The notes beneath the pieces are model-generated. The model saw only the letters and a program-made list of their open reading frames with translations. It searched no databases and was not told the origin of the DNA. From Saprospiraceae bacterium (GTDB taxonomy: Bacteria > Bacteroidota > Bacteroidia > Chitinophagales > Saprospiraceae), in NCBI GenBank assembly GCA_043720935.1, contig JAYSRS010000377.1, forward strand, positions 1-37,028: a stretch of DNA of 37,028 bases, given 5' to 3'. This document shows, one piece after another, positions 763 through 27,552 of this stretch. Made by a program: the position numbers and the translations under genes. Numbering within the stretch: position 1 is the first letter of the stretch; every line of letters starts with the position of its first letter.

Positions 763-789
763 GATTTTAGCACCCCCTCAGTATTTTTG
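760..789 (+). promoter_or_regulatory. Candidate Bacteroidota sigma-A promoter for the 859..3159 receptor gene
   Basis: TTTG at 760-763 and TATTTTTG (TAnnTTTG form) at 782-789, with an 18-nt spacer, about 70 nt upstream of the ATG. The first TA of the -7 box is the last two bases of a CCCCTCAGTA motif copy. Confidence 0.35.
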
Positions 790-858: not shown

Positions 859-3159
859 ATGTCACGCATTAAACTCCTAAAAATTGGCGTATTTCTACTG
901 ATGTCAACGGCAGTTTTTGCCCAAAATATCACATTAAGCGGCTATGTCCGCGATGCCAAAAATGCAGAATCGCTGATTGGAGCGACCATTTTTGAAACCA
1001 ACCACAAACTCGGCACGACGACCAACGAATATGGCTATTATTCCCTCACCGTTCCGTTAGCGGATACGATTGGTTTGGTCATTTCTTTTGTCGGATATCA
1101 GGCGCAAGCAAAAAAAATTTCCACTAAAATAAACACCCGTGTTGATGTTGATTTGAACGATAATGCCGCCGAATTAGGCGAAGTCGTGGTGCAAGCAACG
1201 CGCAACGACGACAATGTGCAACGCGCCAAAATGGGCGTTATTGACGTGCCGATGCGGTCAATCAACACGCTGCCCGTCATTGGTGGTGAACGCGATATTT
1301 TAAAAATTATTCAATTGTTGCCCGGTGTTCAAGCGGGGCAGGAGGGAACAACGGGCTATTTTGTGCGCGGCGGCAATCTCGACCAAAATTTGGTTTTATT
1401 GGACGAGGCAACGGTCTATAATCCGAACCATTTATTCGGTTTGTTCAGCACGTTTAATGTCAACGCTATTAATAATGTGAAGTTGATAAAAGGCGGTTTT
1501 CCCGCCCAATTTGGGGGTAGATTAAGCTCGATTTTGGATATTCAGATGAAAGATGGCGACAAAAAGCACTTTCATACTGAGGGGGGTATTGGTTTGCTAT
1601 CCGCTAATATAACGCTGCAAGGCCCGCTTCAAAAAGAAAAATCATCGTTCATTATTTCGGCTCGACGGAGTTATATTGACCTACTTTTAAAACCCTTTAC
1701 ACCCGCCGCACAACAAGGCACAACGTATTATTTGTACGATGTAAACGCCAAATTGAACTATGAAATCGGCAAAAAAGACCACTTATTTTTGAGTATTTTC
1801 AACGGTAAAGACAATGCCGCTTACACGGGCGCGAACAGCTTGAACTATGGTATTGATTTTGGCAACACGGCAGGTACGTTTCGTTGGAATCACCTCTTTG
1901 GCAACAAATTATTTATGAATACATCGGTCGTTTTCAACGATTATCACCTTGGTTTAGGGTCAACGCAAGGGCAATATTACGCCTTGTTGTACACAGCGAT
2001 AAACGATGTGGCGGCAAAAACGGACGTAACTTTTATCCCAAATCCACAGCACGAAATTAAATTTGGCGTGAATTATACCTATCACACCCTCTATCCCGCG
2101 TCGGCTTCCGCCAAAATTCCGAAAAGCGGCAACCGCACAACCGTCAACCGCGACAGTATTCCACGCCGTTATTCCAACGAATTTGCCGCTTATTTTAGCG
2201 ACGAATGGAAAATTAGCGACCCCCTCAGTATAAACGTCGGTTTGCGCGTTCCAACTTTTTTTACCACGACAAAATCTTACACTTTCGTTGAACCCCGCGT
2301 CACGGCTAAATATTCACTTGACAAAATGACTTCGGTAAAGGCTTCTTTTACCCAAATGAATCAGTTTTTACACCTCGTTCCAAGCAGTACCGCGTCGCTG
2401 CCGACCGATATTTGGATTTCGTCAAGTGCGCTCGTCAAGCCGCAAACGAGTACGCAATTTGCGCTCGGCGTCTTCAAAAATTTTCAAGATAACGGCATTG
2501 AGGCAAGCATTGAAGGCTATTACAAGGACATGAAAAACCAAGTTTTGTTCAAAGAAGGCACGCAAGTCATTTTGGCAACCGACCTCGAAAGCGTCCTAAC
2601 TTTCGGAAATGGAACGTCTTACGGATTAGAATTTTTTGTAAAGAAAAACTTTGGCAAACTCACAGGTTGGACGAGTTACACCTTATCAAAAACGACTCAA
2701 ACCTTTGCCGCACTCAACAACGGCAGCCCGTTTCCTTTTACTTACGACCGCCGCCACAACCTCGCTATTGCCGCGACTTACGACCTCACACCCCGTTGGA
2801 CACTCTCGGCAGACTTCGTTTTCACAACGGGCAGTGCCTTTACTTTACCCGCAGGACGTGTTCCCGTTTTTCAAGACGGCTCGTTGTACGATGGCGTTTA
2901 TTACGATTACACAACCCGCAACAACGCCCGTTTGAACAATTATCATCGGCTCGATGTGAGTGCTTCGTACAAAAAAGAGCGCAAGATATTTGGCAGAAAA
3001 TACGAATCTGAATGGGTTTTTGGAGCTTATAATTTGTACAGCCGCTTGAATCCATATTTCGTTTATTTGGCAACCGACCCAATTACAAAAGTACCCGAAG
3101 CAAGGCAAGTGTCTTTGCTGCCTATTATTCCAAGTGTGGCATTTAATTTTAAATTTTAA
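859..3159 (+). CDS. TonB-dependent outer-membrane receptor (CarboxypepD_reg N-domain, plug, beta-barrel)
   Basis: 766-aa ORF with a signal peptide ending AVFAQN and a GYVRD..ESLIGATI carboxypeptidase-regulatory-like domain. It has plug motifs (PGVQ, FVRGG), a long barrel and a terminal aromatic residue (FKF). Confidence 0.9.
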   Translation: MSRIKLLKIGVFLLMSTAVFAQNITLSGYVRDAKNAESLIGATIFETNHKLGTTTNEYGYYSLTVPLADTIGLVISFVGYQAQAKKISTKINTRVDVDLNDNAAELGEVVVQATRNDDNVQRAKMGVIDVPMRSINTLPVIGGERDILKIIQLLPGVQAGQEGTTGYFVRGGNLDQNLVLLDEATVYNPNHLFGLFSTFNVNAINNVKLIKGGFPAQFGGRLSSILDIQMKDGDKKHFHTEGGIGLLSANITLQGPLQKEKSSFIISARRSYIDLLLKPFTPAAQQGTTYYLYDVNAKLNYEIGKKDHLFLSIFNGKDNAAYTGANSLNYGIDFGNTAGTFRWNHLFGNKLFMNTSVVFNDYHLGLGSTQGQYYALLYTAINDVAAKTDVTFIPNPQHEIKFGVNYTYHTLYPASASAKIPKSGNRTTVNRDSIPRRYSNEFAAYFSDEWKISDPLSINVGLRVPTFFTTTKSYTFVEPRVTAKYSLDKMTSVKASFTQMNQFLHLVPSSTASLPTDIWISSSALVKPQTSTQFALGVFKNFQDNGIEASIEGYYKDMKNQVLFKEGTQVILATDLESVLTFGNGTSYGLEFFVKKNFGKLTGWTSYTLSKTTQTFAALNNGSPFPFTYDRRHNLAIAATYDLTPRWTLSADFVFTTGSAFTLPAGRVPVFQDGSLYDGVYYDYTTRNNARLNNYHRLDVSASYKKERKIFGRKYESEWVFGAYNLYSRLNPYFVYLATDPITKVPEARQVSLLPIIPSVAFNFKF

Positions 3160-5214: not shown

Positions 5215-5317
5215 AACTCATTCTAACTCATTGAAAATCAATTTTTTAGTAAAAATACTGAGGGGGTATCTACACTTTGAATTTTTTAAAAAATCATCAA
5301 ACTAAATTTTAAAATCT

Positions 5318-6105: not shown

Positions 6106-6290
6106 TACTGAGGGGGTATCTTATTGCGGCGTAGCTGCAAAATCTCGGTAATACTAACTTTGAGCATGAGTTTTACTATGCGGTGTAACCGCAAAACAGC
6201 GCGTTTAGCGGTTACACCGCAAAGGAAATTGGGCTATCGAGTCGTGTTACCAAGATTTTGCAGCTACGCCGCAATAAGACACCCTTTACT
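6106..6290. mobile_element. Family A MITE-like palindromic element, copy 1
   Basis: Perfect 26-bp terminal inverted repeat CTTATTGCGGCGTAGCTGCAAAATCT (6120-6145) / 6253-6278. Inner 13-bp hairpin GCGGTGTAACCGC...GCGGTTACACCGC. TACTGAGGGG (6106-6115) abuts the left repeat. A second copy is at 27553-27730. Confidence 0.8.
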
Positions 6291-6344
6291 ACCTTGCGAC
6301 ATAAAGCCAATAATTCCGTAATCAATAATCAACTACTCGCTAAT

Positions 6345-8721
6345 ATGCAACGAAAAATACAACGGAAAATACAACTCCTCAATCTACTTTTAACGCTCTG
6401 TTTAAGCACCGCGTTTGCTCAAAACATAACAATTCCAAGCATGAAGACCCCCAAAATGGGATTAACCCTTAATGGCGGCGGCGTAAAAGGCTTGGCGCAC
6501 ATTGGCGTTTTGCGGATGATTGATTCGCTCGACATTCGGATTGATTGCATTTCGGCAACGAGCATGGGCAGCATCGTCGGAGCGATGTACGCGGTGGGTT
6601 ATTCGGGTGACGACATCAAACGCATCGCCCTAAATGACATTGATTGGTCGCGGATGCTCTCTAACGCGCCGCCTCTCAACGAAGTGGCTTTTGAGGAAAA
6701 AGACGAATTTGGTCGCTATACGCTTGAATTGCCGATGACAGGTTGGCGACCTACCGCGCCGCGTGCGTTCATCGAAGGGCAGTACGTTTTGGCACTTTTC
6801 AACTATTATACCCACAATGTTCGCCACATTTCACGTTTTTCAAAGCTGCCAATTCCTTTGCGGCTCATGGGTTCGGACATTCTCAACGGCGGCTCGGTAC
6901 GCTTAGATTCGGGCAGTTTAGCGGTAGCTATGCGGGCATCAATGGCGATTCCTGTGGTGTTTACGCCCTTATTTTGCAACGGATATTTGCTCGTGGACGG
7001 TGGTTTAGATAAAAATTTTGCCGTTGATGAAGCCCTCGACATGGGCGCGACGCAAGTAATTGGCAGCTACACGGGTTTTTCGGGTTTATGACAAAAGTGA
7101 AATATCAAGCCCCGCCAAACTCATCGCTCAAACTTACGCTTTTAGTTCGGTCAAAGAAGCAACGGCGCAAATGAAACGGGCAACGCTCGTCGTTAACCAC
7201 AACGACGCCCTTAAAAAATATTCGCCAACCGATTTTGCTAATTACGCCGATATTATCCGCATCGGCGAAATTGAAGCCCGTAAAATGCTGCCTGAACTCC
7301 AACGCCTTGCCGATGAACAGCACCGACACCCGACCGCCGCAAAACCACAACACCCCGCCGACCCGCAGTTGCCGATAGATAAAATTGATTTTTTGACCAC
7401 GACCGACCAAAATATACCCCCCTCAGTACAAAAGTTTGCGGAGGCTCGTTTGGGACTAAAAGTGGACAGTATTTACACGGCAAACCAAATTCGACAAGCA
7501 ACTAACCGACTTTATGGCAGTCGTTTTTTTGAAAATGTCTATTTGGCTTTCGACAGCACCCGCCTCCGTGTGCATCTCAAAAATGACGACCCTGACCACC
7601 TCAAAGTGGGTTTACACTACGATAGTTACAGCAGCGTCGGTGTGATTGTAAACTACACCAATCGGCATTTAGGCTTGCCAAATAGTCGTTTTGTGGCAAC
7701 TTTGGCGGCTGCCGAACGCTTGAAAGGACGCGCCAACTACCAATTTTATGTAGATAAAAATTTTAGATTTTGGTCAAAAACCTTTTTTAACTACGAAAAT
7801 CAAACGGGCAAAGAGGTTATTGGTCAATACGAGGATTTTCAGAATTACAATGCCGAACGCTACGATTACGGCACGGGCTTGGGCTATTCGAGCAGCGTAA
7901 ATAGCGGTTTTTTCCTTAGTTTTCAACGCGAACACCATCTTTTGCGCCGCAACCGCGCCCTTCGTCTCCTTTTTGACGACGTGCCAATTTACGCCTACAA
8001 CCACGTTTCCAACAGCCTTAATCTCAATTGGACGCGCAATACTTTCAACAACGTTTATTTTCCGACGAAAGGCAGCCTCACGCAATTTGACGTTAGTTGG
8101 CGGTTTCAAAATCGCCTCGAACTCGACATTTTAGGACTCGAAGGGGCGACCGATTCAGTGGCTTTGCGGTTGCTGATTGCCCCAAAAGCGACCGATTTTG
8201 TCCCGTCGCAAGTGGGGCGTTTTTTGTTCCGTCATCAATCCGTGTTACCGATTTCGCCGCATCTTTCGTTGATTATGGGTGCAAATTGGGGCGGACTTTG
8301 GGATGCAAAAGGGCGTGATAGTTTGTATTTTCCGACGGATACGGTAGTTGGTTCGTCTCGCTACGTTTTTCTCAACAACCGTCTTTCCGTCGGCGGGACA
8401 CGGTTGCGCGAAGCCCCGAATCAACTCAATTTCACGGGTTTGTATCCAGGAGAAATAGCTACTTTTTCCAACGTCACCACTTTCAATTTAGCCATTCAAT
8501 ACACGCCGCTTCGCCATTTGTTTTTGACGCCTTCGCTGTCTTTTGGCTTCGCTAATCCACTCGGTTTTCGTCCTTTTAGCGGTTGGCAACGCGCCGATTT
8601 GCATTGGTTTGGTTATGGTGTTCGGTTGAGTTATCAGTCGCCGATTGGACCTTTTGTGCTTGGTTTTGAGCAAAGCAATGACCTTTGGCGGGGGTATTTT
8701 TCGGCGGGTTTCCCGTTTTGA
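6345..8721 (+). pseudogene. PlpD-like patatin phospholipase fused to an Omp85-type beta-barrel (type Vd architecture), split by a +1 frameshift
   Basis: The ATG at 6345 gives a signal peptide (LCLSTAFAQN). Patatin motifs are present: GGGVKG, SMGS, LVDGG. The reading frame changes inside a T5 run (7076-7080); deleting one T joins ..GSYTGF to RVYDKSEISS... The C-terminal barrel ends GFPF. Confidence 0.7.
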
Positions 8722-8741
8722 GTGACCCCCTCAGTATTTTT

Positions 8742-10880
8742 TTATAACAAATTGATTTTCAACGACATATTCACCACACGCCCGTCAATCGGCGCCCACA
8801 AAGCCCTAAAAGCGGGGTTTGTTTTAGTCCCATCGTACAAGGGTTCTAAGCGGCTTTGTCGAAAATCGGCGAGGTTTTCACCATTCAAAACCAAGGCAAA
8901 ACGCTTGAATTTGCGCTCAATCATACCCGCAAAAAACCAATAATTTTGCGCCTTCGTGCCGTCCGATTTGTATTGATTGCCGACCCACGCGTTTTCGACG
9001 CCAAAACGCCATTTGCCTTCAATATCGTAAGCCAAAGTCATGGCGAATTTGTCTTGTGGACTGTATTTGAGATAAGTTGATGCGTTGTTATTGTCAAAGT
9101 TTTGCGCCAACGTATGGTTATATCCCAAATATAATTCGACAGCGTTGTAAGCAAATCGAACGTAAGTATCTGTTCCCAAAGTCTGAACTGAACCGTTGGA
9201 ATTGGCTAAAAAATCCAAATCTTTAACAATTGGTTTATCAATTTTGACGTAGTAAAACGCTTGATTAATCGTCAAACTAACCTTATCGAATAGGAGTGTG
9301 TGCCAATTGCCATCAAAGTTTAAACCCGTTGATTTTTCAGCTTTTGCGCGGTTGTCAACGCTCAAATTGCCGTTTGCGTCGCTAAAAACGTCGGGTGTTC
9401 GGTAGCCACTGCCGCCGCCGACTCGGAGAGACCAATCGTGGGCGGGTTTGAATAAAACGGACAAACGCGGCAAATAAAACACGCCAAAATTATTCGTTTT
9501 ATCGGCTCTAAAACCGCCTTCGACAATCCAACGCGGGTTTGGTTTCCACGTGTTTTGAACAAATGCGCCGTAGGTTTGATAATTAAAATCACCGCTAACT
9601 GATTGATTGACAAAGGATTGTGTGATAAAATTAAGACCGCCAACTAAATCGTTTTTAGTCGTCGTATTCAAAAAAGACAATTCAGAATAACTCGTCGAAA
9701 ACTTGCCTTTGAAGGGCGAAGCCGCCGAAAAATCCGTCGTTCTGTCCAACAAACTCACCGCCGATTTAGCGGCAATAGAGAAGGTTTTTGACACATCATG
9801 GGCGAAATGACCGTTAAATGTGTTGCGTTGCGTCGCATTTTTTTCAAAAAATTGATGCGACGCACTTGCCGCCGACCCCCTCAGTATATCGATGTCTCCG
9901 CCGTCTCTTTGCTCAAAAGTGCCTGACCAACCCGCATTGATTTTCGTTTTTTCGTTCGACCAAAACAAACGCGGATGCAAGAGCAAACCCCGCACTTTTG
10001 GCACATCCGAAAAGCCGTCACCGTTCACGTCAACGGCTTGTTGGAAGGTTGTACCACCAAAAAAAGTAACGCCAAACTGTCCCCATTTCTTTGATAAATA
10101 GGTATTGATATTCGATTCTTTCAACGTGCTTTGGTTCAAAGTTAGCGTCGCTTCGGGTTTATCAGTCGGAGTTTTTGACACCAAATTTATTAGACCACTA
10201 ATCGCGCCGCCGCCGTAAAGCGTTGACACAGAGCCTTTTATGATTTCAACTTGTTTTAAATCCAAGGGCGGGATTTGCAAAATACCCAAGCCGCCCGAAA
10301 AGCCATCGTACAACGGCAAACCGTCGCGCAGCAACTGCGTGTATTTGCCATCCAAGCCTTGCATCCGCACGACTGAACCACCACTCACCGCCGACGTTTG
10401 TTGAATATGAATGACCGACAAATCGCCCAAAAGACTGCCGATATTTGACGGTTTTATCCCGTTTTCTTCCGTCAATTCTTCCAAACCCAAGACTTCCACC
10501 TTTGTCGGCTGGTCCTCGATACGGGCATTTGTCCGCGTTGACGTGACGACCGCTTCGTCTAAATCGGTGGCTTCGGGCGTCATTTTCAAATTAAAATTTT
10601 TCGATACATCAGTAAGCGGTAACGAGAGCGTCAAAGTGTCCGATTTGTAGCCCACGAAGGAATAAGCCAACGACATTGCCCCATTTGAGAGACCCCTCAG
10701 TATCAAGCCGCCGTCGAGGTCGGTAACGCCGCCTTTTGTTGTGCCGACTTGCACGACGGCAACGCCCACAAGCGGCTCACCATTTTTTTCGTCTGTAATT
10801 TTTAAACTAACATCATTTTGCCCCAATAAATGGGCTGAATTTAGGAACAACAACGCGATAATTAATTGTGATATTTTCAT
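8742..10880 (-). CDS. TonB-dependent outer-membrane receptor
   Basis: 712-aa ORF with a signal peptide, a CarboxypepD_reg-like N-domain (PLVGVAVVQVGTTKGGVTDLDG), a plug (RMQGLDGKYTQLLRDGLP) and a barrel. Confidence 0.9.
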   Translation of the reverse strand: MKISQLIIALLFLNSAHLLGQNDVSLKITDEKNGEPLVGVAVVQVGTTKGGVTDLDGGLILRGLSNGAMSLAYSFVGYKSDTLTLSLPLTDVSKNFNLKMTPEATDLDEAVVTSTRTNARIEDQPTKVEVLGLEELTEENGIKPSNIGSLLGDLSVIHIQQTSAVSGGSVVRMQGLDGKYTQLLRDGLPLYDGFSGGLGILQIPPLDLKQVEIIKGSVSTLYGGGAISGLINLVSKTPTDKPEATLTLNQSTLKESNINTYLSKKWGQFGVTFFGGTTFQQAVDVNGDGFSDVPKVRGLLLHPRLFWSNEKTKINAGWSGTFEQRDGGDIDILRGSAASASHQFFEKNATQRNTFNGHFAHDVSKTFSIAAKSAVSLLDRTTDFSAASPFKGKFSTSYSELSFLNTTTKNDLVGGLNFITQSFVNQSVSGDFNYQTYGAFVQNTWKPNPRWIVEGGFRADKTNNFGVFYLPRLSVLFKPAHDWSLRVGGGSGYRTPDVFSDANGNLSVDNRAKAEKSTGLNFDGNWHTLLFDKVSLTINQAFYYVKIDKPIVKDLDFLANSNGSVQTLGTDTYVRFAYNAVELYLGYNHTLAQNFDNNNASTYLKYSPQDKFAMTLAYDIEGKWRFGVENAWVGNQYKSDGTKAQNYWFFAGMIERKFKRFALVLNGENLADFRQSRLEPLYDGTKTNPAFRALWAPIDGRVVNMSLKINLL

Positions 10881-10987
10881 TTTAAATAATCAGTTAATAC
10901 AATTGTTAAATGATGATTAATGGCAATATGTACATGTTTTTGAGTCGAGATTTTAGGAGCTTACAACATTGAAAACAAACTAAAAAA

Positions 10988-11410
10988 TCACTTCCACACC
11001 AAAACAAGCATACCCGCCAAAATCAAACTACCACCCAGTAAGATTTTAGGCGTAACAGGCTCTTTTAAAACCCAAAATGATAACAAAAGTGTGATAACAA
11101 TGCTCGCTTTGTCAATACTGGCTACATAACTCACATCACCAATTTTGATGGCTTTGTAGTAAAAAATCCATGAAAGCGAGGTCGTCAAAGCTGAAATTGC
11201 GAGAAATAGAATGGCTTTTGGCGTTGCTTGCTGCCACATTTTCACTTCATTGAAAATAAAGGCATTGGCAAGTACGAACACCGTTACAAACAGCGTCCGA
11301 ATGGCTAAACCCACATCAGAAGGCAAATCTTTTAAGCCAAATTTGGCGATAACGGACGTAATGCCCGCAAAAAGCATGGAGATAAGCGCGTAAAGCGTCC
11401 AATTTTGCAT
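10988..11410 (-). CDS. Small EamA-domain (DMT superfamily) transporter
   Basis: 140-aa ORF with about 4-5 hydrophobic helices and an EamA-like N-terminus (LYALISMLFAGITSVIAKFGL). Confidence 0.7.
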   Translation of the reverse strand: MQNWTLYALISMLFAGITSVIAKFGLKDLPSDVGLAIRTLFVTVFVLANAFIFNEVKMWQQATPKAILFLAISALTTSLSWIFYYKAIKIGDVSYVASIDKASIVITLLLSFWVLKEPVTPKILLGGSLILAGMLVLVWK

Positions 11411-11426
11411 GATGAATAGGTGTTAA

Positions 11427-11459
11427 AACTTGACGCAAATTTCTAATTTGCGTCAAGTT
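11427..11459. repeat. Family C gene-end hairpin
   Basis: AACTTGACGCAAATT / AATTTGCGTCAAGTT, a 15-bp perfect stem with a 3-nt loop, 18 nt downstream of the kinase stop codon. Confidence 0.8.
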
Positions 11460-11476
11460 GTTTATTGTTGTTTACG

Positions 11477-12763
11477 TCAAGTCGCCGCCGTTTTGAAATC
11501 CACCGAAAACCGATGCGCGTTTGCCTCAAACCGATAGCCGATGCCAAAACCGTATTGTTGCCCGATGCGCTCCACTAATGACAGGCCCAAACCGACCCCC
11601 TCAGTATCTACGCCCTTTTTGAAGCGTTTAAAAATTTGCTCGGCGTCTAAGGCAGTCGATTTGCCCGTATTGCTCACAACTAATTGATTATCAGTTAGTT
11701 TTATGTGGATTTGACCTTTCAAAATATTGTGTCGAATGGCGTTTGACAAGAGATTGGAGACTAAAATTTCGGCTAAAACGGGGTGAATACTGAGGGGGTC
11801 GGTTTTTGATAACTCGGTCGTGACGGTCAATTGTTTTTTCTCAATAATGGGGGCGAGTAAATCCAAACGTTCGTTTATGAGGTGCGCTAAGTCTATTTTT
11901 TCGGTTTTCTGAAACTGTTGATTGTCAATTTTAGTCATCAACAACAAGGTTTTCGATAGCCGCGACAAACGCCCCACAACCCGAAGCGAAGCCGCAATGT
12001 CATCAACGGCAACGGCGGGTAAATCGGAATTTTGCAGAAGATTGTCGAGCCGATTTTGCAGCAAAGCAAGGGGCGTTTGCAGCTCGTGCGAGGCATTGTC
12101 CGTAAATTCTTTGAGCGTTTGGTAGTCCAATCTTAGGCGGTCGGTCATGCGTTTTAGGTGCCGATTGAGGTTGTTAAATTCATCAATTGTCGTGGGCGCA
12201 AAACTTAAAGAATCCGTTTCTGTAAGTTGTAAACGGTTGATTTTCAACAAAGTATCGTTAAAAGGCGACCATACTGTTTGCGCCAAACGTTGATTTGTCC
12301 AAAAAGTCAACACCAACAAAATGGCCCACAAGACAACGGCTGAACCCGCCGCCACGCCAATTAAATCTTCATCCTCAAGGCTCGATTCGTTCAGTTTAAC
12401 CTCATAAAGTTGCCCTTTCACGCCGAGCGTAAAAGCCAATTGTCGGTAAGGTTCTAACTCACCCGATTCGCTCGGATTGCCGATAAAGGTGTCGCGGAGG
12501 GTTTGATACTGAGGGGTGTTGACAGGCAGCGTCTGCACCTCAAAAACGAAGTCTCTTGTCGAGAAAAACGAAGGTAAACTGTCGTTTTTTCCTACAAATT
12601 GCCGAATTTCGGCGTTGATTACCCGTAAATTTTCATCGGCTTGACGGGTGATAAGTTGCCGAATACCGATGTAAAAAAGCACCGCGCCCACCACAAAAAT
12701 AGCCGCCGATTGCAAAGCATACAGTCGGTTTGTTTTGGTAAGAAGTTTCATCTGTCTGTCCAT
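11477..12763 (-). CDS. Sensor histidine kinase
   Basis: 428-aa ORF with two TM segments, an H-box (SHELQTPL), an N-box (LLSNAIRHN) and a G2 box (GVGLGLSLV). Confidence 0.9.
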   Translation of the reverse strand: MDRQMKLLTKTNRLYALQSAAIFVVGAVLFYIGIRQLITRQADENLRVINAEIRQFVGKNDSLPSFFSTRDFVFEVQTLPVNTPQYQTLRDTFIGNPSESGELEPYRQLAFTLGVKGQLYEVKLNESSLEDEDLIGVAAGSAVVLWAILLVLTFWTNQRLAQTVWSPFNDTLLKINRLQLTETDSLSFAPTTIDEFNNLNRHLKRMTDRLRLDYQTLKEFTDNASHELQTPLALLQNRLDNLLQNSDLPAVAVDDIAASLRVVGRLSRLSKTLLLMTKIDNQQFQKTEKIDLAHLINERLDLLAPIIEKKQLTVTTELSKTDPLSIHPVLAEILVSNLLSNAIRHNILKGQIHIKLTDNQLVVSNTGKSTALDAEQIFKRFKKGVDTEGVGLGLSLVERIGQQYGFGIGYRFEANAHRFSVDFKTAAT

Positions 12764-13425
12764 TTATAGCCCACGCCATAGACCGATTTGAGGTAATCGC
12801 CGCAGCCTTTATCGATCAGTTTTTTACGTAAATTTTTGACGTGCGTGTAAATAAAATCGTAGTTGTCGGCTTGGTCAATCGCATCGCCCCACGCGTGTTC
12901 GACGACGGATTCTTTGGTCAAAATACGGTTTTTATTGCTCAAAAAATAGAGCAACAAATCATATTCCTTTTTGGTACAAATCACTTCGTTGCCGTTTACC
13001 AACACTTGCCTAGTATCGGTATCTATTTTCAACTCATTGAAAATCAATTCATTATGTCCCGCGAATTTACGCCGCCGCAACAAGGCTTTCACCCTTGCGT
13101 TGAGTTCGGCGAGGTGAAAAGGCTTGGGCAAATAATCGTCTGCGCCCAATTCAAGCCCTTTGATGCGGTCGTCGAGCGCGTCCTTTGCGGAAATGATGAT
13201 AACACCCGTCTCCACGCGGCGTTTTTTGAGGTCTCGAATCACGTCTAAACCACTGCCATCGGGCAAACCAATGTCCACAAGCAGACAATCGTAGGCATAG
13301 ACGTAGCTTTTTTCTTCCGCTTCGGCAAGGCTCGCGGCAGTCTCCACGATGTACCCCTCAGTATGAAGATAGGCGGCAACGGTGCTACGAAGTTCGGGTT
13401 CGTCTTCTATCAATAAAATTTTCAT
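12748..13425 (-). CDS. OmpR-family response regulator
   Basis: Start moved to MKILLIEDE (ATG at 13425). It has a receiver domain (LLVDIGLPDGSG) and a winged-helix C-terminus (VYGVGYKW). It overlaps the kinase start by 16 nt. Confidence 0.9.
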   Translation of the reverse strand: MKILLIEDEPELRSTVAAYLHTEGYIVETAASLAEAEEKSYVYAYDCLLVDIGLPDGSGLDVIRDLKKRRVETGVIIISAKDALDDRIKGLELGADDYLPKPFHLAELNARVKALLRRRKFAGHNELIFNELKIDTDTRQVLVNGNEVICTKKEYDLLLYFLSNKNRILTKESVVEHAWGDAIDQADNYDFIYTHVKNLRKKLIDKGCGDYLKSVYGVGYKWTDR

Positions 13426-13666
13426 AGCGCAAAAGTCGAGTTTGATTTTGAAGAAAAACTGAAGTTGATAAAACATTTACGAAATCTATAAGATTTCGTA
13501 AATGTTAGCGCACCTCAACTGTAACCTATTAACGCTCGACTCTATAAACTTGCACAAAGTTTTTCGGGATGGAAAAATCTACTTCAAAATCGCTTCAGAA
13601 TCGTCTTTTACCTTTGCACCATAATTTTTTAAACCGCACGGCAACGTGCTTAAATTTGATTTTACA

Positions 13667-14215
13667 ATGAAAAAGATTTTGTTATCCGTAGCATTTATGC
13701 TCCCCCTCAGTATCGCCTTGATTTCGGCGCAAAATGCAGCATCTACCGTTAATAATAAGGTGGAAAAACACGCGCAAGGCAAAGGTCACGCTGCCAAAGA
13801 GCAAGCAGAACAGACTGAACAAACGGCAAAAAAGGCGAAAACGCCGAAAGCTAAAACCGCCGTTCCCGAAGCCGTCAAAACGGCGTTCAAACAGCGTTTT
13901 CCGCAGGTGAAAAAAGTCGAATTTGACCGTGAGCGCAACGGCGAATACGAAGCCGAATTTAAAGAAAACGGCGTGAAAATGTCCGCTAATTTCACCGCCG
14001 ACGGCATTTGGCGCGAAACTGAAACCGAAATTAAGGTAGCCGAATTGCCCACGGCAGTAACGCAAGCGATTGCGGCTAAATACCCAAAAGCCAAAGTGGT
14101 CGGCGCGGCAAAAATTGAGACGGCTGATAAAGGTACGCACTACGAAGCGGATTTAAAAACGGGCGCGAAAAAGTCGGAAATCTTGTTCGACGAAGCGGGT
14201 AATGTCGTGAAGTAA
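13667..14215 (+). CDS. PepSY-like (DUF2874-type) periplasmic protein
   Basis: The ATG at 13667 gives the signal peptide MKKILLSVAFMLPLSIALISAQ. A Lys/Ala-rich linker is followed by two PepSY-like repeats (VPEAVKTAFKQRFP.., LPTAVTQAIAAKYP..). It is divergent from the two-component pair. Confidence 0.7.
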   Translation: MKKILLSVAFMLPLSIALISAQNAASTVNNKVEKHAQGKGHAAKEQAEQTEQTAKKAKTPKAKTAVPEAVKTAFKQRFPQVKKVEFDRERNGEYEAEFKENGVKMSANFTADGIWRETETEIKVAELPTAVTQAIAAKYPKAKVVGAAKIETADKGTHYEADLKTGAKKSEILFDEAGNVVK

Positions 14216-14824: not shown

Positions 14825-16375
14825 CTAAAATCTATAAACCAGTCCCCCCCTCAGTACCCCAAGCACGGAAGCATCTTTTATATCATACAAAAAATCTGTC
14901 CGCAACTGCACCATCCACCGCCGCGACACATCGGACTCAATACCCACACCGCCGCCGAGCAATTGCTCAATCCGTTTGTCAGTCGTGCGGGTGATATAGC
15001 GTTCATCGCCAACCGACATTTTCTTAAATTCAAATTGGACTGCGCCCGTTGGAATAATCCGACTGCTGTAAGTGGCACTCAACACCGTGCGGACGCGGCG
15101 TTGTGGACTCAAAACGTACTGCACCGAAGCCGTCAACAAGCGGCTGAGCTGTGTCCCTTGAACATATCTAAATTCATAGTCGGGTGCGGGTGCTTCGGGG
15201 CGTTCTGGCAGGTGCAAAAAAGCGGGTGCTTCGGCAGTTTCAAACTTGAAACTTGAAAAAGCCGTGGTTACGTTCAGCCGCCAACGACTGTTGAAGGCAA
15301 TTCCTGCTTCCAAACCAATACTTACTGAGGGGGTCAATTTTGGGGTAAAAGGCAAAAAATTCATCGCGCCCACCTGCACACCTAAGAAATAATTTTCGAT
15401 AAGCGGCTTTTTAATCGGTTCAATTTTGGGTGCTTTTTTCTCAAATTCTATATCTGCCAATTTGAGGGCAGAAGTGTCGGGCGTTTTAGCGCGGCGGGGT
15501 TTAACGGCTGCCATTGAGTCGGTTTTAGGCATAGCCTCTGTGGGTTTAGCGGTAGGCACGGCGGCGGTAGTTGTGTCTGCATTGCGGACAGTAGTGACGG
15601 CGGCACGGTTTTGTTGAGCCGTGTCCGCCACCGCGTTTGCCGCAGGGAATGAAACGGCGGCATTTGTCAAACTATCGCCTGTTTTTGCCAAAACATCAGT
15701 CGGGTGTTGCGGGCTTTCAGCTATTTTGATGGCGTTCGAGTTGGGAATTAATTGGTTTTTAGTATTTTCCGTCGCGTTTTTAGGCGCGTCTGATGCCAAA
15801 GCCGCGCTGTTTGTCAAGTCTTGATTCGCTTTTTGAGTAGAGGTTGAGCCTATATTATTGTCTTGTTTTTTTGAATTATTGTTTAAAAAATCGTCTAAAA
15901 CGGGGCTTGTCGCCTCCATTTTGCGCCCCGTTTCGGTGTTTGAAAAAGTTGGTGTGGCTGTTGTGGTTATGGGTGTTGCGGTCGGTATTATTTTATCAAC
16001 GACATAAATATTGCGGTAAATGGTATCGGTTTTTACCACGACAGTTGTGCGATAAATGGTATCGGCAAGCTGTTCGGCTGCCAAAAGGTTGGGCGCAGTC
16101 ACTGGATTCGGCGACATACTGAGGGGTGTGTTTGGCAACTTCAAAGCCGCCAATTCCTGTTTCAAATGACGCATTTCCCATACTTGCCACCCGTTGCCGA
16201 GTAACAATAAACCCAACGGCAACCAATAAACCCATTTGCCGAGCCACGCGCCACGCGGTTTTTTGAGCGCGTCGAGTTGGGCAAATACTTTCTGTTTGTT
16301 GGCTTCGCGGTTCGGAAAATAAGCGTCGCGGTTTAATCTATCCGCAAAAAAATTGTCTAAGTCCTTATCATCCAT
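14825..16375 (-). CDS. ECF-sigma partner: short N-terminal region, one TM helix, low-complexity linker, C-terminal OMP-like beta-barrel
   Basis: 516-aa ORF, 20 nt downstream of the sigma gene. TM helix WVYWLPLGLLLLGNGW at about residue 50. The linker is Thr/Ala/Pro-rich. The C-terminus has alternating beta-strand patterns and ends LVYRF. It is a paralog of 35555..36931. Confidence 0.65.
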   Translation of the reverse strand: MDDKDLDNFFADRLNRDAYFPNREANKQKVFAQLDALKKPRGAWLGKWVYWLPLGLLLLGNGWQVWEMRHLKQELAALKLPNTPLSMSPNPVTAPNLLAAEQLADTIYRTTVVVKTDTIYRNIYVVDKIIPTATPITTTATPTFSNTETGRKMEATSPVLDDFLNNNSKKQDNNIGSTSTQKANQDLTNSAALASDAPKNATENTKNQLIPNSNAIKIAESPQHPTDVLAKTGDSLTNAAVSFPAANAVADTAQQNRAAVTTVRNADTTTAAVPTAKPTEAMPKTDSMAAVKPRRAKTPDTSALKLADIEFEKKAPKIEPIKKPLIENYFLGVQVGAMNFLPFTPKLTPSVSIGLEAGIAFNSRWRLNVTTAFSSFKFETAEAPAFLHLPERPEAPAPDYEFRYVQGTQLSRLLTASVQYVLSPQRRVRTVLSATYSSRIIPTGAVQFEFKKMSVGDERYITRTTDKRIEQLLGGGVGIESDVSRRWMVQLRTDFLYDIKDASVLGVLRGGLVYRF

Positions 16376-16394: not shown

Positions 16395-16865
16395 TTAAAA
16401 AATATTTTCACTCAACATCCGCCGCAAATCCTCTCTTGCCCGCGATAAAGCGGACTTGCAAGCCCCCTCAGTCGTGCCGAGCAATTCGGCAATTTCGGCG
16501 TGTTTGTAGCCTTCAATGACGTACATATTGAACACCATACACCGAATAGGCGAGAGGCGTTGCACCAATTCCAAAATCTGTTCGCGGGTGAGGCGGTCAA
16601 CGATTGAGTCTTCATCTCGAACCAAAGCTGCCTCTTCCAAATCGTATTGCACCAATTTATCGCGCCGCCGATAGTGGTCAATTGCCGTATTGATAACAAT
16701 ACGCCGCAGCCAACCTTTGAAAGATAGGTCGGGCGAGTAATGGGTTGCAATGCGGGTAAAAACCTTGACAAAAGCATCATTTACCACTTCTTCCGCTTCT
16801 TGAAAACTCGCTATATAAAGCGTCGCTACGGTCATGGCGTAGTTGTAGAAGTTATCAAAAAGCAA
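16395..16865 (-). CDS. ECF-type RNA polymerase sigma-70 factor (N-terminus uncertain)
   Basis: Region 2 (VVNDAFVKVF, WLRRIVINTAIDHYRRR) and region 4 (GYKHAEIAELLGTTEGACKSALSRAR) are present. The first canonical start is a TTG at 16865, yet similarity to the paralog continues upstream to about 16931. Confidence 0.8.
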   Translation of the reverse strand: MLFDNFYNYAMTVATLYIASFQEAEEVVNDAFVKVFTRIATHYSPDLSFKGWLRRIVINTAIDHYRRRDKLVQYDLEEAALVRDEDSIVDRLTREQILELVQRLSPIRCMVFNMYVIEGYKHAEIAELLGTTEGACKSALSRAREDLRRMLSENIF

Positions 16866-17229
16866 TTCCTGTGCGCCTCGCTTTTGTTTGATGCAACCTT
16901 CGATGATTGATATGTCTGTTGAGTATTTGATACGCTTTTCGTTTTATTAACCCACACGCAAAGTTTGATTAAAAGGTCACAAGGAAGTGAAAAAAAAGTG
17001 AAAAAAGGTGAAAATACTGAGGGGGGTGTTTTTATTGCGTAAGCCACGCCGCCGTATTTTCAAACCCAATCCAAGTTTTATTTCCCGCTATTTGCCAGCG
17101 TCGACTGCAAATAGTACGCGCCTTTGCTCACAATCTTTGCGCCTTTGGGCAGTTCTGCCAAGAGCCTATAATCTTCGATTTACTGAGGGGGGTAAATGGA
17201 TGATTTGCAAACCTTATATTCCTATTTTT

Positions 17230-19266
17230 TCAGCGCAATTTTCCCAACGTATTCGTTTTGCTCGATTGGCTATTCATCTCAAAAGCCTGTTTGCCACAAT
17301 CTAAAAACGCCTTGTAAGTCGCCACATCGGGCATATAAGCCACGGGGCGATTGAGCAAAGTTTTCCCGTCATTACTCATCAAAACATAATAGGGCTGTGA
17401 AGAAATACCGAAATTATTGACTTGAAAAGACGACCACTTTGCGCCCACCGTCCGCAGTTTTTCCTGCGTGTGTTTGTCCACCAAAAATTTCTGTTTGTCA
17501 TCGGGAAAAAGCCTCTGTTTATCGTCCACGTAGAGCGAAACAACCACATAATCGTTCCGCAAGGCATTGATAATTTCGGGTTTTACCCAAATATTTTCTT
17601 CCATTTTGCGACAATTGACGCAGCCATAGCCCGTAAAATCCACGAAAAGCGGCTTGTTGACCTTTTGCGCGTAGGCAACAGCTTCGTCAAACTCATGGAA
17701 ACAATTTAAGCCGTGCGGACACTCTGCTTGTCCCCAAAAACTATAGTGTACAGGCGGCGCGAGACCACTCAAAAGGCTCAAAGGTTTGTAAGTAAAACCC
17801 GTTGCCAAATAGCCCACAAACAACACCGACAATGCCCCGACGATTTGCGAACCGCGTGTGATTTTGGCATTTTTAGAATCGTGAGGAAAGCGGATAAAAC
17901 CAAAATGATAGAGGGCTAAACCTGCAAAAATCACTATCCACAAAGCCAAAAAGAGTTCTAATTTCAAGAAATTCCAATGGCGCACCATATCGGCAGTCGA
18001 AAGGAATTTGAACGCCAAAGCCAATTCAACGAAGCCCAAAGTCACTTTTACTTTCGTCATCCACGCACCTGAACGCGGCAGGGTTTTGAGCCAACTCGGA
18101 AACGCTGCAAACAAGCTAAACGGCAAAGCCAAAGCCAACGAAAACGCCACCATACCGACCAAAGGTTTCAACGGAATTAAGCCCAAAACCGAGTCCTGCG
18201 CGTTCTGAACGGTCTGCACCAACAGCGTCCCGATAATCGGACCGGTGCAGGAAAACGAGACCAAAGCCAGCGTGAAAGCCATGAAAAAAATGCCAATCAA
18301 ACCGCCTTTTTCGTCCGCCATTTGGTCGGTTTTGGTTGACCATGAACTGGGCAAAGTCAGTTCGTAGTAGCCAAAAAATGACCCTGCAAAGGCAATAAAA
18401 ACCACAAAAAACAAAAGGTTGAAATACATATCGGTGGACATTTCGTTGAGAATTGTCGGGCCGAAAAGACTGGTCAAAACAATCCCAATGCCTACATAAA
18501 TGCCAATGATAGACAAGCCATAAATCGTCGCGTTTCTGATACCTTTGGCGCGCGTACCGCTATTTTTGGTAAAAAAACTAACGGTCAAAGGAATCATCGG
18601 GAACACGCAAGGCGTGAGCAAAGCCAACAAACCACCAAGAAAACCAAAAATAAAAATCCACAAAACGCTGTCCGTCTGCTCAACGCTATCGGAACTGCAC
18701 GTTGCTAAAAATTGGTCGCTTTTGATGTCCCTTTTGGAGTCAAAAATGCCTTCGGTGGCGGCGGTACTGAGGGGGGTGTTTGCGCCCGTCGGGTCGAGAT
18801 TAAAATTAAAATCCACATCTTTTGGCGGCAAACAGGATTTGTCGTTGCAAGTCATAAAAGTCAAATAACCTTTAACGGGTTGGCTCGCGTTGGTGACTTT
18901 GACGACTTGCGAAAAGGTGGCTGTGTGGCTAAATTTCAAGAGTTTCATACCGAAATTAGGGTCAAAATTCTCTTTCAAATCACCACTTTCAGTCACTTTA
19001 CCCACTAATGAAAAGTGGCTACTCGAATCATATTCAAAAGTCGTCGGCACGGGGCCTTCCTCGCCAAACATCTTTGTGGAGTACAAATACCACCCCTCAG
19101 TAATGGTGGCTTTGTACCGCAATTCATATTCTTGATTGCCCTTCGGATGGGCTTCAAACGTCCAACTAACGGGCGATTCGGAGGCGGATTGCGCCATGAG
19201 GGTACGCGCTAAAAACAGCGCAGCCACGAACAGCAAGCGCGTTTTTGAGACAAGTTGAGTTATCAT
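17230..19266 (-). CDS. dsbD: Thiol:disulfide interchange protein DsbD
   Basis: 678-aa ORF with a signal peptide, an N-terminal DsbD-alpha-like domain (FMTCNDKSCLPP), a polytopic core with Cys in TM helices (LTPCVFPMIP, SFSCTGPI) and a C-terminal thioredoxin domain (GYGCVNC). Confidence 0.9.
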   Translation of the reverse strand: MITQLVSKTRLLFVAALFLARTLMAQSASESPVSWTFEAHPKGNQEYELRYKATITEGWYLYSTKMFGEEGPVPTTFEYDSSSHFSLVGKVTESGDLKENFDPNFGMKLLKFSHTATFSQVVKVTNASQPVKGYLTFMTCNDKSCLPPKDVDFNFNLDPTGANTPLSTAATEGIFDSKRDIKSDQFLATCSSDSVEQTDSVLWIFIFGFLGGLLALLTPCVFPMIPLTVSFFTKNSGTRAKGIRNATIYGLSIIGIYVGIGIVLTSLFGPTILNEMSTDMYFNLLFFVVFIAFAGSFFGYYELTLPSSWSTKTDQMADEKGGLIGIFFMAFTLALVSFSCTGPIIGTLLVQTVQNAQDSVLGLIPLKPLVGMVAFSLALALPFSLFAAFPSWLKTLPRSGAWMTKVKVTLGFVELALAFKFLSTADMVRHWNFLKLELFLALWIVIFAGLALYHFGFIRFPHDSKNAKITRGSQIVGALSVLFVGYLATGFTYKPLSLLSGLAPPVHYSFWGQAECPHGLNCFHEFDEAVAYAQKVNKPLFVDFTGYGCVNCRKMEENIWVKPEIINALRNDYVVVSLYVDDKQRLFPDDKQKFLVDKHTQEKLRTVGAKWSSFQVNNFGISSQPYYVLMSNDGKTLLNRPVAYMPDVATYKAFLDCGKQAFEMNSQSSKTNTLGKLR

Positions 19267-19281: not shown

Positions 19282-20208
19282 TTAAGAAACTCGAATGTTT
19301 TCGGACGTAAACAAGCTGTTTTCGTCGTCAATAATGATACAAGCAATGTGTTTCATTTGGTTTATCAAACTCAAACCGACACTTACACCCATCACCATAA
19401 CGGGCGTTGTCAGCACGTCGGCAAGTTCGGCGTTCGGGGCGATAATCGTGACGCTTTTGATGCCCGACACAGGCATACCCGTCTTTGGGTTAATCGTATG
19501 GGAATAGCGTTTGCCGCCAATAACAACGTATTTTTCGTAATTGCCCGAAGTCGCTACTGCCCGATTGCTGATGTCGAGATACGAAAACGGCTGCATTTTA
19601 CTGAGGGGGTCGGCAATGCCGATTGTCCACGCTTTGCCGCTTGGTTGATTGCCCCAAGTTGTCAAATCGCCCGAAGCGTTGATGATGCCGCTTTTTACGC
19701 CGTTTTGTTGCAAGAGTCGTTTTGCCCTTTCCGCCGCGTAGCCTTTGCCGATGCCGCCAAAACCAATCCGCATACCCGCCAATTTTAGGAACACCGTACG
19801 CGCCGCCCTATCCAATTCAATGTTTTTGTAATTGATAAGATGCACGGCTTTTTTCGCCAATTCTGGGTCGGGCAGTTGGGTCATTTGGGTATCAAAATTC
19901 CAAAAACGTTTGTCCATCGAGCCATAACTGAGGTCAAACGCGCCTTGTGTAAGGTCTGAAATCCGAATCGCTCTTTGTATCAAATCAAACACTTCGGCAT
20001 CAACGCGCACGGGCGCAATGCCCGCATTTTCGTTGATTTGGAAAGTTTGGCTGGTGTTGCTAAAAGTCGTCAACAGCCGTTCGATGCGCTCAATTTCGGC
20101 AACGGCGCAGTCAATTTGAGCTTCTGCCCAAATTGCATTGTCGGCAACCACGCTGATTTCAAATTGGTTGCCCATGAGTTTCTGTTGGCGTTTTTGCAGT
20201 TTTGACAC
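19282..20208 (-). CDS. apbE: FAD:protein FMN transferase (ApbE family)
   Basis: ApbE signatures are present: LMGNQFEISV and GGIGKGYAAE. The start is either the GTG at 20208 or the ATG at 20175. No signal peptide is visible. A motif copy sits immediately upstream of the GTG. Confidence 0.85.
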   Translation of the reverse strand: MSKLQKRQQKLMGNQFEISVVADNAIWAEAQIDCAVAEIERIERLLTTFSNTSQTFQINENAGIAPVRVDAEVFDLIQRAIRISDLTQGAFDLSYGSMDKRFWNFDTQMTQLPDPELAKKAVHLINYKNIELDRAARTVFLKLAGMRIGFGGIGKGYAAERAKRLLQQNGVKSGIINASGDLTTWGNQPSGKAWTIGIADPLSKMQPFSYLDISNRAVATSGNYEKYVVIGGKRYSHTINPKTGMPVSGIKSVTIIAPNAELADVLTTPVMVMGVSVGLSLINQMKHIACIIIDDENSLFTSENIRVS

Positions 20209-20229
20209 CCCCTCAGTATTTTAGCTAAT

Positions 20230-21060
20230 TTATTGAATTACAATTTTTCTACTCATCATTTTGCCACCCGATTCGACGGCAACCGAGTACACGCCTTTCG
20301 CCAAATGCTTAACGCTAATCGGTTGTTGACTGCCCTGCACAACGGTATTCAAAACGGCTCTGCCTTGCACGTCAACAAGCATGACGTTCGCTTCGGTTTT
20401 GTCCGCAAGTTCGACAAATAATACATCGCTCGTTGGGTTTGGATAAACGTGGGCGTTCAAAGTCGTTTCCAACTCGTCGGTGGGTGTCGTTATTTTTTTA
20501 TAAACCAATTTTTTGCCCGTAATGCTGTTGTCGCCACCTTCTACGCCGTCGCTGTTCGCCACCATACCGACGTAATAAAATGTAAGGGGCATAGTCGGCA
20601 AGGTCGCGGGAGCTGTCCAATTGTACGTCCATGCTGCTACATTTGCCGCGAAATTGATAGGTTTGGCTTGACGTGGGTATTTACGTCCCGTTGTGGCGGT
20701 GGTATTACCCGAACCGATGGAAACAACCGTCGCGTTGGGAGAAACAAAAGTGCCAGCAGGCGCATTGGTAGCATCCAAACAGGTCATTTGAAAACCGCCG
20801 CGTCCGCCTGCTGCGTTGTTGCGGACGGTGAGGGTAATCGCGTAGGTTTGACCCCCCACGATGGAATCTGGTAAGCCTGTTACGGTGACAGTTCCCGTCA
20901 TATTGCCGTTGGTGTGGCAACCCGAATAGTTGCAAGAAGCGTTTTCGCTCGGCGCACCCGTCGAACCCACAGGCGGGTTGTTCGGGTCGCGTTTGAAGGC
21001 ACTGAATGTTGAAAAGCCCATAAAAAGGCTGAGACAAGTAGCGACAATTTGAATTTTCAT
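20230..21060 (-). CDS. Secreted protein with a T9SS C-terminal sorting domain
   Basis: Start moved to MKIQIVATCLSLF (ATG at 21060). The N-terminal domain contains GSTGAPSENASCNYSGCH. The C-terminal roughly 80 aa have the typical Por/T9SS tail (VYPNPTSDVLFVEL...GVYSVAV...KIVIQ). Confidence 0.8.
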   Translation of the reverse strand: MKIQIVATCLSLFMGFSTFSAFKRDPNNPPVGSTGAPSENASCNYSGCHTNGNMTGTVTVTGLPDSIVGGQTYAITLTVRNNAAGGRGGFQMTCLDATNAPAGTFVSPNATVVSIGSGNTTATTGRKYPRQAKPINFAANVAAWTYNWTAPATLPTMPLTFYYVGMVANSDGVEGGDNSITGKKLVYKKITTPTDELETTLNAHVYPNPTSDVLFVELADKTEANVMLVDVQGRAVLNTVVQGSQQPISVKHLAKGVYSVAVESGGKMMSRKIVIQ

Positions 21061-21138
21061 TGTTGACGAGAGATGTTTATGATTTTTAAAATCGTTTTTG
21101 ACAAAATACTGAGGGGGTGTGTTTTGACGCAAGTTTGG

Positions 21139-21421
21139 AACTTGACGCAAGTTTGAAACTCTGTCCATTACCCACAAGTTTTTTGACTTCTCAAATCCGT
21201 AGGATTTGCACGTTTATAGAAAGTAAACAGAGGCGTTTTTCCTCGAATCCGTTAGGATTCGCACGTTGAAAGTTCGCAGCTTCTTTGAAAAAAACGTGCG
21301 AATCCTAACGGATTCGGAGTCCTATTCCTGTATTTTTTATCTATAAATGTGTAAATCCTAACGGATTTATGAACTTCAAAAACTTGTGGGTAATGGACAG
21401 GGTTTGAAACTTGCGCCAAGT
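21139..21421. repeat. 283-bp composite long palindrome with family C termini and four AATCC(G)TTAGGATT sub-palindromes
   Basis: The outer arms 21139-21183 / 21377-21421 match at 42 of 45 positions. The inner arms 21244-21267 / 21293-21316 are a perfect 24-bp inverted repeat. A further pair is 21192-21216 / 21343-21371. A motif copy at 21107-21116 flanks the element. Confidence 0.85.
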
Positions 21422-22857: not shown

Positions 22858-22955
22858 GAGAAAAAGGGAAAATACTGAGGGGGGTAATTGCGTTTTTTTT
22901 GAACATCACGTTAGGAAAATTTTGAAAGTTTGCCTAACGTGATGTCCTTTCATAC

Positions 22956-23198: not shown

Positions 23199-23258
23199 GC
23201 TTTTGACTATTAAAATTGAGATAAAATAAGCAAAATACTGAGGGGGGTGTTTTTGAAA

Positions 23259-26052: not shown

Positions 26053-26132
26053 ATTTTTTATTTTTTCCCTGCAAATCAAAAACAAAATTTTCGATTTACA
26101 GGGAAAAAAATGAAATTTAATACTTGAGGGGG

Positions 26133-27540: not shown

Positions 27541-27552
27541 AAATGATAAAAG

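Follow-up and report, generated by a model that had tools for sequence, protein, structure and literature searches.

The 37,028-nucleotide (nt) stretch analyzed here, hereafter the window, is contig JAYSRS010000377.1 (forward strand) of the Saprospiraceae bacterium assembly GCA_043720935.1, and it carries, in genes and spacers alike, numerous copies of one short DNA word, TACTGAGGGG. The long open reading frames (ORFs), annotated with Pfam, include TonB receptors (859..3159, 8742..10880, and 31957..34395), an Omp85-like ORF (7060..8721), a histidine kinase (11477..12763), a response regulator (12748..13476), a PepSY-like ORF (13646..14215), an extracytoplasmic function (ECF) sigma factor (16395..16865), DsbD (17230..19266), ApbE (19282..20208), an ORF sorted by the type IX secretion system (20230..21177), a DUF3570 ORF (21454..22725), an AAA_14/DUF4143 ATPase (24886..26085), a Bro-N ORF (26133..26969), and an outer-membrane protein β-barrel ORF (35555..36931). 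Furthermore, a plasmid-type replicon is present, comprising a Rep3 initiator gene (27853..29241), five 21-bp iteron-like repeats (29435-29539), and ParA (30371..31045); the GC content of the region 27853-31045 is low (0.34-0.39; 42.6% for the window), and the contig ends do not overlap, so that circularity of the replicon is unsupported. The 9-mer ACTGAGGGG is found 39 times and the 10-mer TACTGAGGGG 37 times in the window, and both are by a wide margin the most frequent words of their lengths. Markov models of order 0 to 3 predict only 0.06-0.18 and 0.012-0.047 copies, respectively, and the excess of the 10-mer is therefore 800 to 3000 times, or approximately 1000-fold, with just three one-off variants.

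The 12-nt consensus of the aligned copies is aTACTGAGGGGg/t, and the flanks outside these approximately 12 nt are unrelated. Back-translation of the encoded tripeptides TEG, LRG, PLS, PSV, and PQY implies the same core, (A)TACTGAGGGG(G/T); A is preferred at position -3 and G or T at +8, and AT-rich helically phased flanking segments are not evident. The word is non-palindromic, i.e., it differs from its own reverse complement, and the 20 copies on the plus strand and 19 on the minus strand follow one another in near-random order (18 orientation runs counted by hand versus approximately 20.5 expected). Spacing, however, is more even than under random placement, with a mean of 927 nt and a coefficient of variation of 0.67 versus 0.98 (p=0.004). 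When the copies are mapped to the long ORFs, 26 are coding and 13 intergenic; non-coding DNA makes up 21% of the window and holds 33% of the copies, which corresponds to 1.7 copies per kb versus 0.9 per kb in coding DNA, a difference of approximately twofold. Rfam and tRNA scans of the window gave no matches, and in the literature the word was matched only by unrelated primers.

Among the intergenic copies, those at 5256..5265, 17015..17024, 17181..17190, 22873..22882, 23236..23245, 24407..24416, and 24873..24882 are on the plus strand, as is the copy at 6106..6115, which adjoins the end of a palindromic element of approximately 175 nt (6116-6290). On the minus strand, the intergenic copies are located at 774..783, at 8727..8736 between convergent genes, at 20209..20218 in a 21-nt spacer with co-directional genes on either side, at 27721..27730 adjoining the end of a second such element (27550-27720), and at 29851..29860 close to the iteron-like repeats. 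The coding copies are distributed over all five stop-free frames, and the TAC-TGA frame holds none, as an earlier note made from the letters of this DNA had stated. TEG is encoded in sense orientation by eight copies, namely in the receptor 859..3159 (1575..1584, +, HTEG), the histidine kinase (11597..11606, -, DTEG, directly N-terminal of the G2 box GxGLGL), the response regulator (13354..13363, -, HTEG), DsbD (19093..19102, -, ITEG), the Bro-N ORF (26727..26736, -, NTEG), Rep3 (28267..28276, -, YTEG), and, twice, the β-barrel ORF (35902..35911 and 35992..36001, both +, NTEG), to which a variant, GACTGAGGGG, in region 4 of the ECF sigma factor is added (16464..16473, -, TTEG). LRG is encoded, likewise in sense, by five copies, two in the receptor 8742..10880 (9877..9886 and 10693..10702, both -, ILRG at amino acids 332-335 and 60-63) and one each in ORF 14825..16375 (14847..14856, -, VLRG), the ATPase (25769..25778, -, ILRG), and the receptor 31957..34395 (32225..32234, +, ILRG). 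The antisense copies comprise six of PLS, in the receptor 859..3159 (2221..2230, -, PLSI), the kinase (11788..11797, +, PLSI), the PepSY-like ORF (13703..13712, -, PLSI), ORF 14825..16375 (16117..16126, +, PLSM), DsbD (18765..18774, +, PLST, in a variable linker), and ApbE (19599..19608, +, PLSK); two of PSV, in the Omp85-like ORF (7419..7428, -, PPSV) and ORF 14825..16375 (15323..15332, +, TPSV), together with one GACTGAGGGG variant in the DUF3570 ORF (22357..22366, +, YPSV); and three of PQY, in the kinase (12507..12516, +, TPQY), the T9SS-sorted (type IX) ORF (21107..21116, +, PPQY), and the receptor 31957..34395 (34067..34076, -, APQY). The earlier note had these numbers right for TEG, LRG, PLS, and PSV and missed one PQY copy, giving two; for the perfect coding copies its 13 in sense stand, and its 10 in antisense become 11. 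All of the peptide contexts that it quoted are located (HFHTEGGIG, VDTEGVGLGL, LHTEGYIV, ITEGWYLY, NTEGVFRI, YTEGVIRE, QNTEG twice, DILRGSA, and LILRGLS), including the sigma region-4 variant; the interval 9877-13363, to which it had attached its statement on the frames, contains only six copies, and the statement is valid for the whole window. The copies at 35902 and 35992 are separated by 90 nt and share 19 identical bases (cctcaaaatACTGAGGGGg) including the word, with the peptide PQNTEG, from which they probably represent an internal duplication of 30 codons and not independent origins.

The origin of the coding copies was examined by aligning host proteins with homologs from protein collections (histidine kinase, receptor 8742..10880, and DsbD) and, for the response regulator, by codon alignment. 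Eight sites are alignable: TPQY, PLSI, and DTEG of the kinase, HTEG of the response regulator, the two ILRG of the receptor, and ITEG and PLST of DsbD. In all eight, the residues encoded by the word stand opposite ordinary residues of close relatives, and indels specific to the lineage are not seen at any of them, as is expected from the earlier proposal that the word arose by substitution and not insertion; the PLST site is within an indel-rich linker, yet its length equals that of the nearest relative. The tripeptides are not universally conserved, the outgroups having TAG, SES, LKN, LVG, AEG, or DEG at these sites; opposite ITEG of DsbD, relatives have AEG, DEG, EEG, or QDG, and at the receptor site of the copy at 10693, outgroups have LKN or LQG. 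At the nucleotide level, the G2-box site of the kinase reads ACT GAG GGG in the window and in L010 (relatives are numbered by locus) and ACT GCG GGT in the word-less L009. One receptor site (site A) reads ATA CTG AGG GGT in the window, L022, and L019, TTT TTG CAA GGT in L016, and GAA ATT AAA AAT in an outgroup. The response regulator of L009 retains the peptide LTEGY with the codons ACA GAG GGA. Codon choice follows the word as well: ACT-GAG-GGG is used in nine of the 11 TEG tripeptides of the window, although these codons account for 19%, 23%, and 12% of their families, and in five of seven LRG tripeptides the first two residues are written with CTG (8% of Leu) and AGG (5% of Arg), both rare codons. 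The same peptide written with other codons in L009 and the forced codon choice at TEG and LRG together indicate that selection acts on the DNA word and that the peptides follow from it. The earlier note had further placed the word at conserved protein positions, which does not hold: in 7/7 scored sites the 4-residue window around the site is below the median conservation of its own protein (percentiles 2 to 43). The sites are permissive positions inside domains, and the alignments show that the word was made there by point substitution, both synonymous and non-synonymous.

These alignments bear directly on the view that the word marks where a small mobile element, of the miniature inverted-repeat transposable element (MITE) or repetitive extragenic palindromic (REP) type, left a scar or has its end, or that it results incidentally from selection for TEG, LRG, and PLS peptides. 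Such an origin would suit the two of 39 copies (6106 and 27721) that adjoin the approximately 175-nt MITE-like element, the probable duplication at 35902/35992, and the E-G dipeptide, which is conserved at the response regulator and DsbD sites. By contrast, no indel accompanies the word at the eight aligned sites, a related MITE-like copy in L022 (about 448-610) has the word 45 nt away and not at its end, 13 copies are non-coding, L009 encodes the same peptide without the word, and TEG, 5 times commoner in the window than the amino-acid composition predicts, owes this excess to the word only. Classification as a MITE or REP repeat was rejected on the unrelated flanks beyond approximately 12 nt and on the 26/39 coding copies without indels, in agreement with the rejection of mobile-element scars in the earlier note. 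For the bulk of the copies, both mobile scars and peptide selection are ruled out by the ortholog alignments, and the probability left to this explanation is close to nil.

The distribution of the word was followed in fetched contigs that encode close homologs of the window proteins, i.e., in loci and not complete genomes. Carriers constitute six divergent lineages (the window, L010, L011, L016, L019 of assembly GCA_031424115.1, and L022), with identities to the window of 43-57% for the kinase and 65-75% for the receptor. The pooled carriers contain 99 9-mers in 123 kb (0.81 per kb), and their 94 perfect 10-mers versus 11 one-off variants give a ratio of 0.12. By contrast, outgroup Bacteroidota loci totaling 445 kb, of which 286 kb came from a metagenome contig search with alignment of the receptor (outgroups of 43-54% identity), contain no perfect copy and nine one-off variants, and the relatives recovered with the kinase in a genome-contig search (≤37% identity) are all without the word. 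The carrier clade apparently consists of uncultured Bacteroidota related to Saprospirales, a placement suggested by the named DsbD homologs, which come from Saprospiraceae and Lewinellaceae metagenome-assembled genomes, and by the Rep3 initiator of the window, whose closest match is the initiator of the Haliscomenobacter hydrossis plasmid pHALHY03 (48.6% identity); the 50 kb of pHALHY03 searched contain no copy. L009 and L014 have no copy, yet a tree of the response regulator and kinase places them within the carriers, the clade that encloses them having 100% bootstrap, which points to secondary loss followed by decay in that lineage. As a separate observation, word-less L009 (GCA_043739285.1, 6.9 kb) contains four copies of AATTTTTTGC in both orientations and partly in genes, with a fifth site that matches only ATTTTTTGC; its candidacy as an alternative "dialect" was set aside as too weak to claim, being absent from L014 and L015 and explicable by AT-rich bias.

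Individual sites are shared across these lineages. The receptor copy at 9877 is also found in L022 and that at 10693 in L022 and L019; the kinase copies at 11597 and 12507 and the response regulator copy at 13354 recur in L010, and the kinase copy at 11788 in L011. Overall, 16 of the 37 directed comparisons of orthologous sites show the exact 9-mer kept, versus 1.0 expected from 54-74% nucleotide identity, a 16-times enrichment; this retention test was used in place of a comparison of third codon positions within shared motifs, which is circular. New, lineage-specific sites are also found among the carriers. To judge from these comparisons, the word is kept far longer than the sequence surrounding it. 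It acts at the DNA level and in a lineage-specific manner, not at the level of protein or RNA, and it is almost certainly a signal made by substitution and actively maintained.

A signal of this kind could be read directionally along the replichore, as in recombination and segregation motifs of the Chi, FtsK-orienting polar sequence (KOPS), or SpoIIIE recognition sequence (SRS) type. In favor of such a motif, the word is over-represented and found chromosome-wide, and single loci are one-stranded, namely L016 (12/14 copies) and the phage locus L070 (6/6). However, the window is balanced (20 versus 19, with the near-random runs given above), adjacent copies are co-oriented in 50/93 cellular cases (p=0.53) and 35/57 viral cases (p=0.11), and the length and excess of the word are far above those of known Chi or KOPS motifs. 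A polar signal is accordingly given very little probability. The strand bias of L016 (contig Ga0654655_000184, JGI 3300084582) loses significance when all loci are pooled; a comparable one-strand arrangement (9/9) was observed in the related locus L017. Polar motifs, mobile-element scars, and peptide selection are thus each contradicted by a direct test.

The near-absence of one-off variants could also reflect a mutational process in which a methyltransferase and a mismatch-repair or very-short-patch-type system turn near-matches into the word on whatever DNA replicates in the cell, with no function of its own required. A substitution-made, clade-specific word in all frames, in non-coding DNA, and on all replicon types is compatible with this process, for which the hyper-abundant cyanobacterial word HIP1, tied to methylases, provides a precedent (10.64898/2026.06.24.733823). 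Yet a non-palindrome of 10-12 nt is longer than typical targets of methylases or very-short-patch repair, the one-off variants observed show no transition-type pattern, and neither even spacing nor inverted-pair hairpins are predicted by a purely mutational process. We regard such a by-product as improbable; since HIP1, whose function was long unknown, is now proposed to aid transformation (10.64898/2026.06.24.733823), it partly merges with an uptake-based explanation.

The explanation ranked first, tentatively and by analogy with known systems, is that the word is a DNA-uptake-sequence-like or uptake-enhancing signal maintained by biased exchange; the earlier note had already likened it to uptake sequences, and the likeness fits as to anatomy, with uptake itself a matter of analogy. 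Under this explanation, a DNA receptor of the competence machinery would prefer fragments with the word, and homologous recombination of such fragments would replace word-less alleles. The word would then rise, in either orientation and wherever proteins tolerate it, to approximately one per recombination-sized fragment (approximately 1 kb), and lineages losing the receptor would let it decay. DNA uptake sequences are a textbook case of molecular drive and of "safe sex" among relatives. Up to 2025 they are described only in Neisseriaceae and Pasteurellaceae (10.1101/2025.10.24.684340), and a literature search found no paper pairing "uptake sequence" with "Bacteroidota"; confirmation of an uptake bias would therefore extend the phenomenon to another phylum. 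The carriers and the loss lineage nested among them offer a clean comparative test for the gene that reads the word.

Several observations weigh against the uptake explanation. Competence genes, pili, and receptors are found in none of the fetched loci, which are loci and not whole genomes, and the purity of the word (one-off to perfect, 0.12) exceeds that of both classical cases. Of the 13 intergenic copies of the window, none takes part in a motif-pair hairpin, while approximately half of the DNA uptake sequences (DUS) of Neisseriaceae and of the uptake signal sequences (USS) of Pasteurellaceae are reported within terminators (10.1101/2025.10.24.684340). Genes acquired recently lack DUS (PMC2397512), and DUS depletion serves as a means of locating mobile elements (PMC7371117); a corresponding depletion is not found here, either in the replicon or in phage contigs ascertained by the motif. 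The replicon region of the window (Rep3, iterons, ParA, and Bro-N; roughly 25.7-31 kb) carries approximately 0.8-0.9 copies per kb, one of them within rep. In a scan of IMG/VR with one 14-mer form of the word, most hits were single chance matches (108 loci, 913 kb, almost empty of the word apart from the seeding match), but at least seven distinct viral contigs hold 4 to 12 copies per locus, at approximately 0.8 per kb, or approximately 0.7 per kb without the seeding matches (loci L129, L107/L101, L109/L071, L134, L070/L142, L149, L126/L086, and L098). Genes for the terminase large subunit, for baseplate hub and wedge, and for tail sheath, tape-measure, and virion proteins are present on several of these contigs, and copies of the word lie within the genes of the terminase, the baseplate hub and wedge, and the tape-measure protein. 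Confidence in the uptake explanation is held down because the replicon and phages, unlike in the case of DUS, show no depletion, and because motif-pair terminator hairpins are missing among the intergenic copies of the window.

The equal density in phages and plasmid was not foreseen by the earlier note and would surprise a specialist; it is relevant to a long-standing question, uptake-driven drive versus selection within the cell. An intracellular "self" watermark would account for it: a host system, for example a nuclease-recombination complex or a defence system, would spare or favor word-dense DNA, and all resident replicons would be selected to carry the word. Equal density in chromosomal-type loci (0.81 per kb), the replicon region, and phages, copies within structural and packaging genes of phages, and even spacing are in line with this, as is the lower purity in phages (63 perfect versus 24 one-off copies; 94 versus 11 in cellular loci), which is expected of mimicry in progress. 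On the other hand, no candidate reader protein was found, the lack of polarity, the length of 10-12 nt, and the approximately 1000-fold excess are unlike Chi, and temperate phages and resident plasmids could gain the word through uptake-driven recombination too. Moreover, the phage sample was ascertained by motif match, and phages without the word would therefore go unseen. An intracellular watermark is on balance unlikely, though it and a repair-driven word are serious rivals of the uptake explanation; a shade less likely still is a clade-wide "self" watermark that takes the place of an uptake tag, or adds to it, and that plasmids and tailed phages mimic at host density; if true, this would be a new word-based discrimination of self and non-self in Bacteroidota. 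The word is also a cheap marker for binning and host assignment, since it is present on the plasmids and phages of this clade.

Hairpins and other repeats complete the description of the locus. Strong hairpins arise from closely spaced inverted copies of the word in L022, L071, and L086; that of L022 (7264-7311; -32 kcal/mol) is followed by TTTT. A pair of this kind is absent from the window, where the coding copy at 35992 overlaps a weak 6-bp terminator-like match. A second repeat family of the window, the palindrome AACTTGACGC...GCGTCAAGTT, forms intergenic hairpins at 5178-5214, 11427-11459, 14782-14816, 21124-21160, 23252-23289, and 23801-23839, which look like the real terminators of the window. 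The MITE-like element has terminal inverted repeats GTRTCTTATTGCGGCGTAGCTGCAAAATCT and an inner palindrome GCGGTGTAACCGC, and each of its two copies in the window adjoins a copy of the word with one end. The last bases of the contig (36936-37028) are 8.5 perfect copies of the 11-bp tandem repeat GAAAATAGCTT, which is probably why the assembly breaks there. Furthermore, patatin and Omp85 domains form one protein of 774-800 amino acids in L010 (2553-4955) and L019 (7484-9808), but in the window (6258-8721) they are split between two overlapping ORFs (6258..7091 and 7060..8721), and a frameshift or pseudogene is therefore possible.

Among known systems, the closest in anatomy are the DUS of Neisseriaceae, GCCGTCTGAA and its dialects, which are bound by the minor pilin ComP, and the USS of Pasteurellaceae, AAGTGCGGT / ACAAGCGGT. 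The present word is not a known dialect of either, having only CTGA in common with GCCGTCTGAA and nothing with AAGTGCGGT. It resembles DUS as a non-palindromic word of 10-12 nt with weaker flanks, in a several-hundred-fold or greater excess at approximately one copy per kb, in both orientations, inside and outside coding sequence, and at protein positions that tolerate change. It is likewise conserved at orthologous sites and clade-specific with losses, forms inverted-pair hairpins, and is spaced near 1 kb; DUS spacing is reported to match the size of conversion tracts (PMC2397512). It differs from DUS in its unrelated sequence, in its host phylum, Bacteroidota, in being undepleted in the plasmid replicon and phage contigs, in a still lower share of one-off variants, in the lack of motif-pair terminator hairpins among the intergenic copies of the window, and in that no ComP-like receptor is seen in the fetched loci. 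With USS it shares the origin by substitution, the use of all stop-free frames, the density of approximately one per kb, and orthologous positions common to species; USS accumulate by point substitution in pre-existing sequence and not by insertion (PMC1939737). The two differ in purity, with a one-off to perfect ratio of 0.12 here versus 0.52 in Haemophilus influenzae (764 one-off and 1471 perfect USS; PMC1939737), and in the AT-rich helically phased flanks, which are not evident here.

HIP1 (GCGATCGC), too, is a short word that reached very high abundance through substitution in the coding and non-coding DNA of an entire clade, but it is an 8-nt palindrome and methylase target, whereas the present word is a non-palindrome of 10-12 nt. 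Chi sequences are 5-8 nt long, few-fold over-represented, and strongly co-oriented with replication; the present word resembles them as a host-specific over-represented word that can mark self DNA and that phages may carry, and differs in its length, its approximately 1000-fold excess, and its lack of polarity. By analogy, the overall anatomy of the word matches that of DUS and USS in its length and density, its lack of polarity and its origin by substitution, its permissive and positionally conserved sites, its restriction to a clade, its spacing of approximately 1 kb, and its inverted pairs. In quantitative terms it surpasses the known uptake sequences, for which over-representations of approximately 180-fold and 390-fold have been reported (PMC1939737), versus approximately 1000-fold here.

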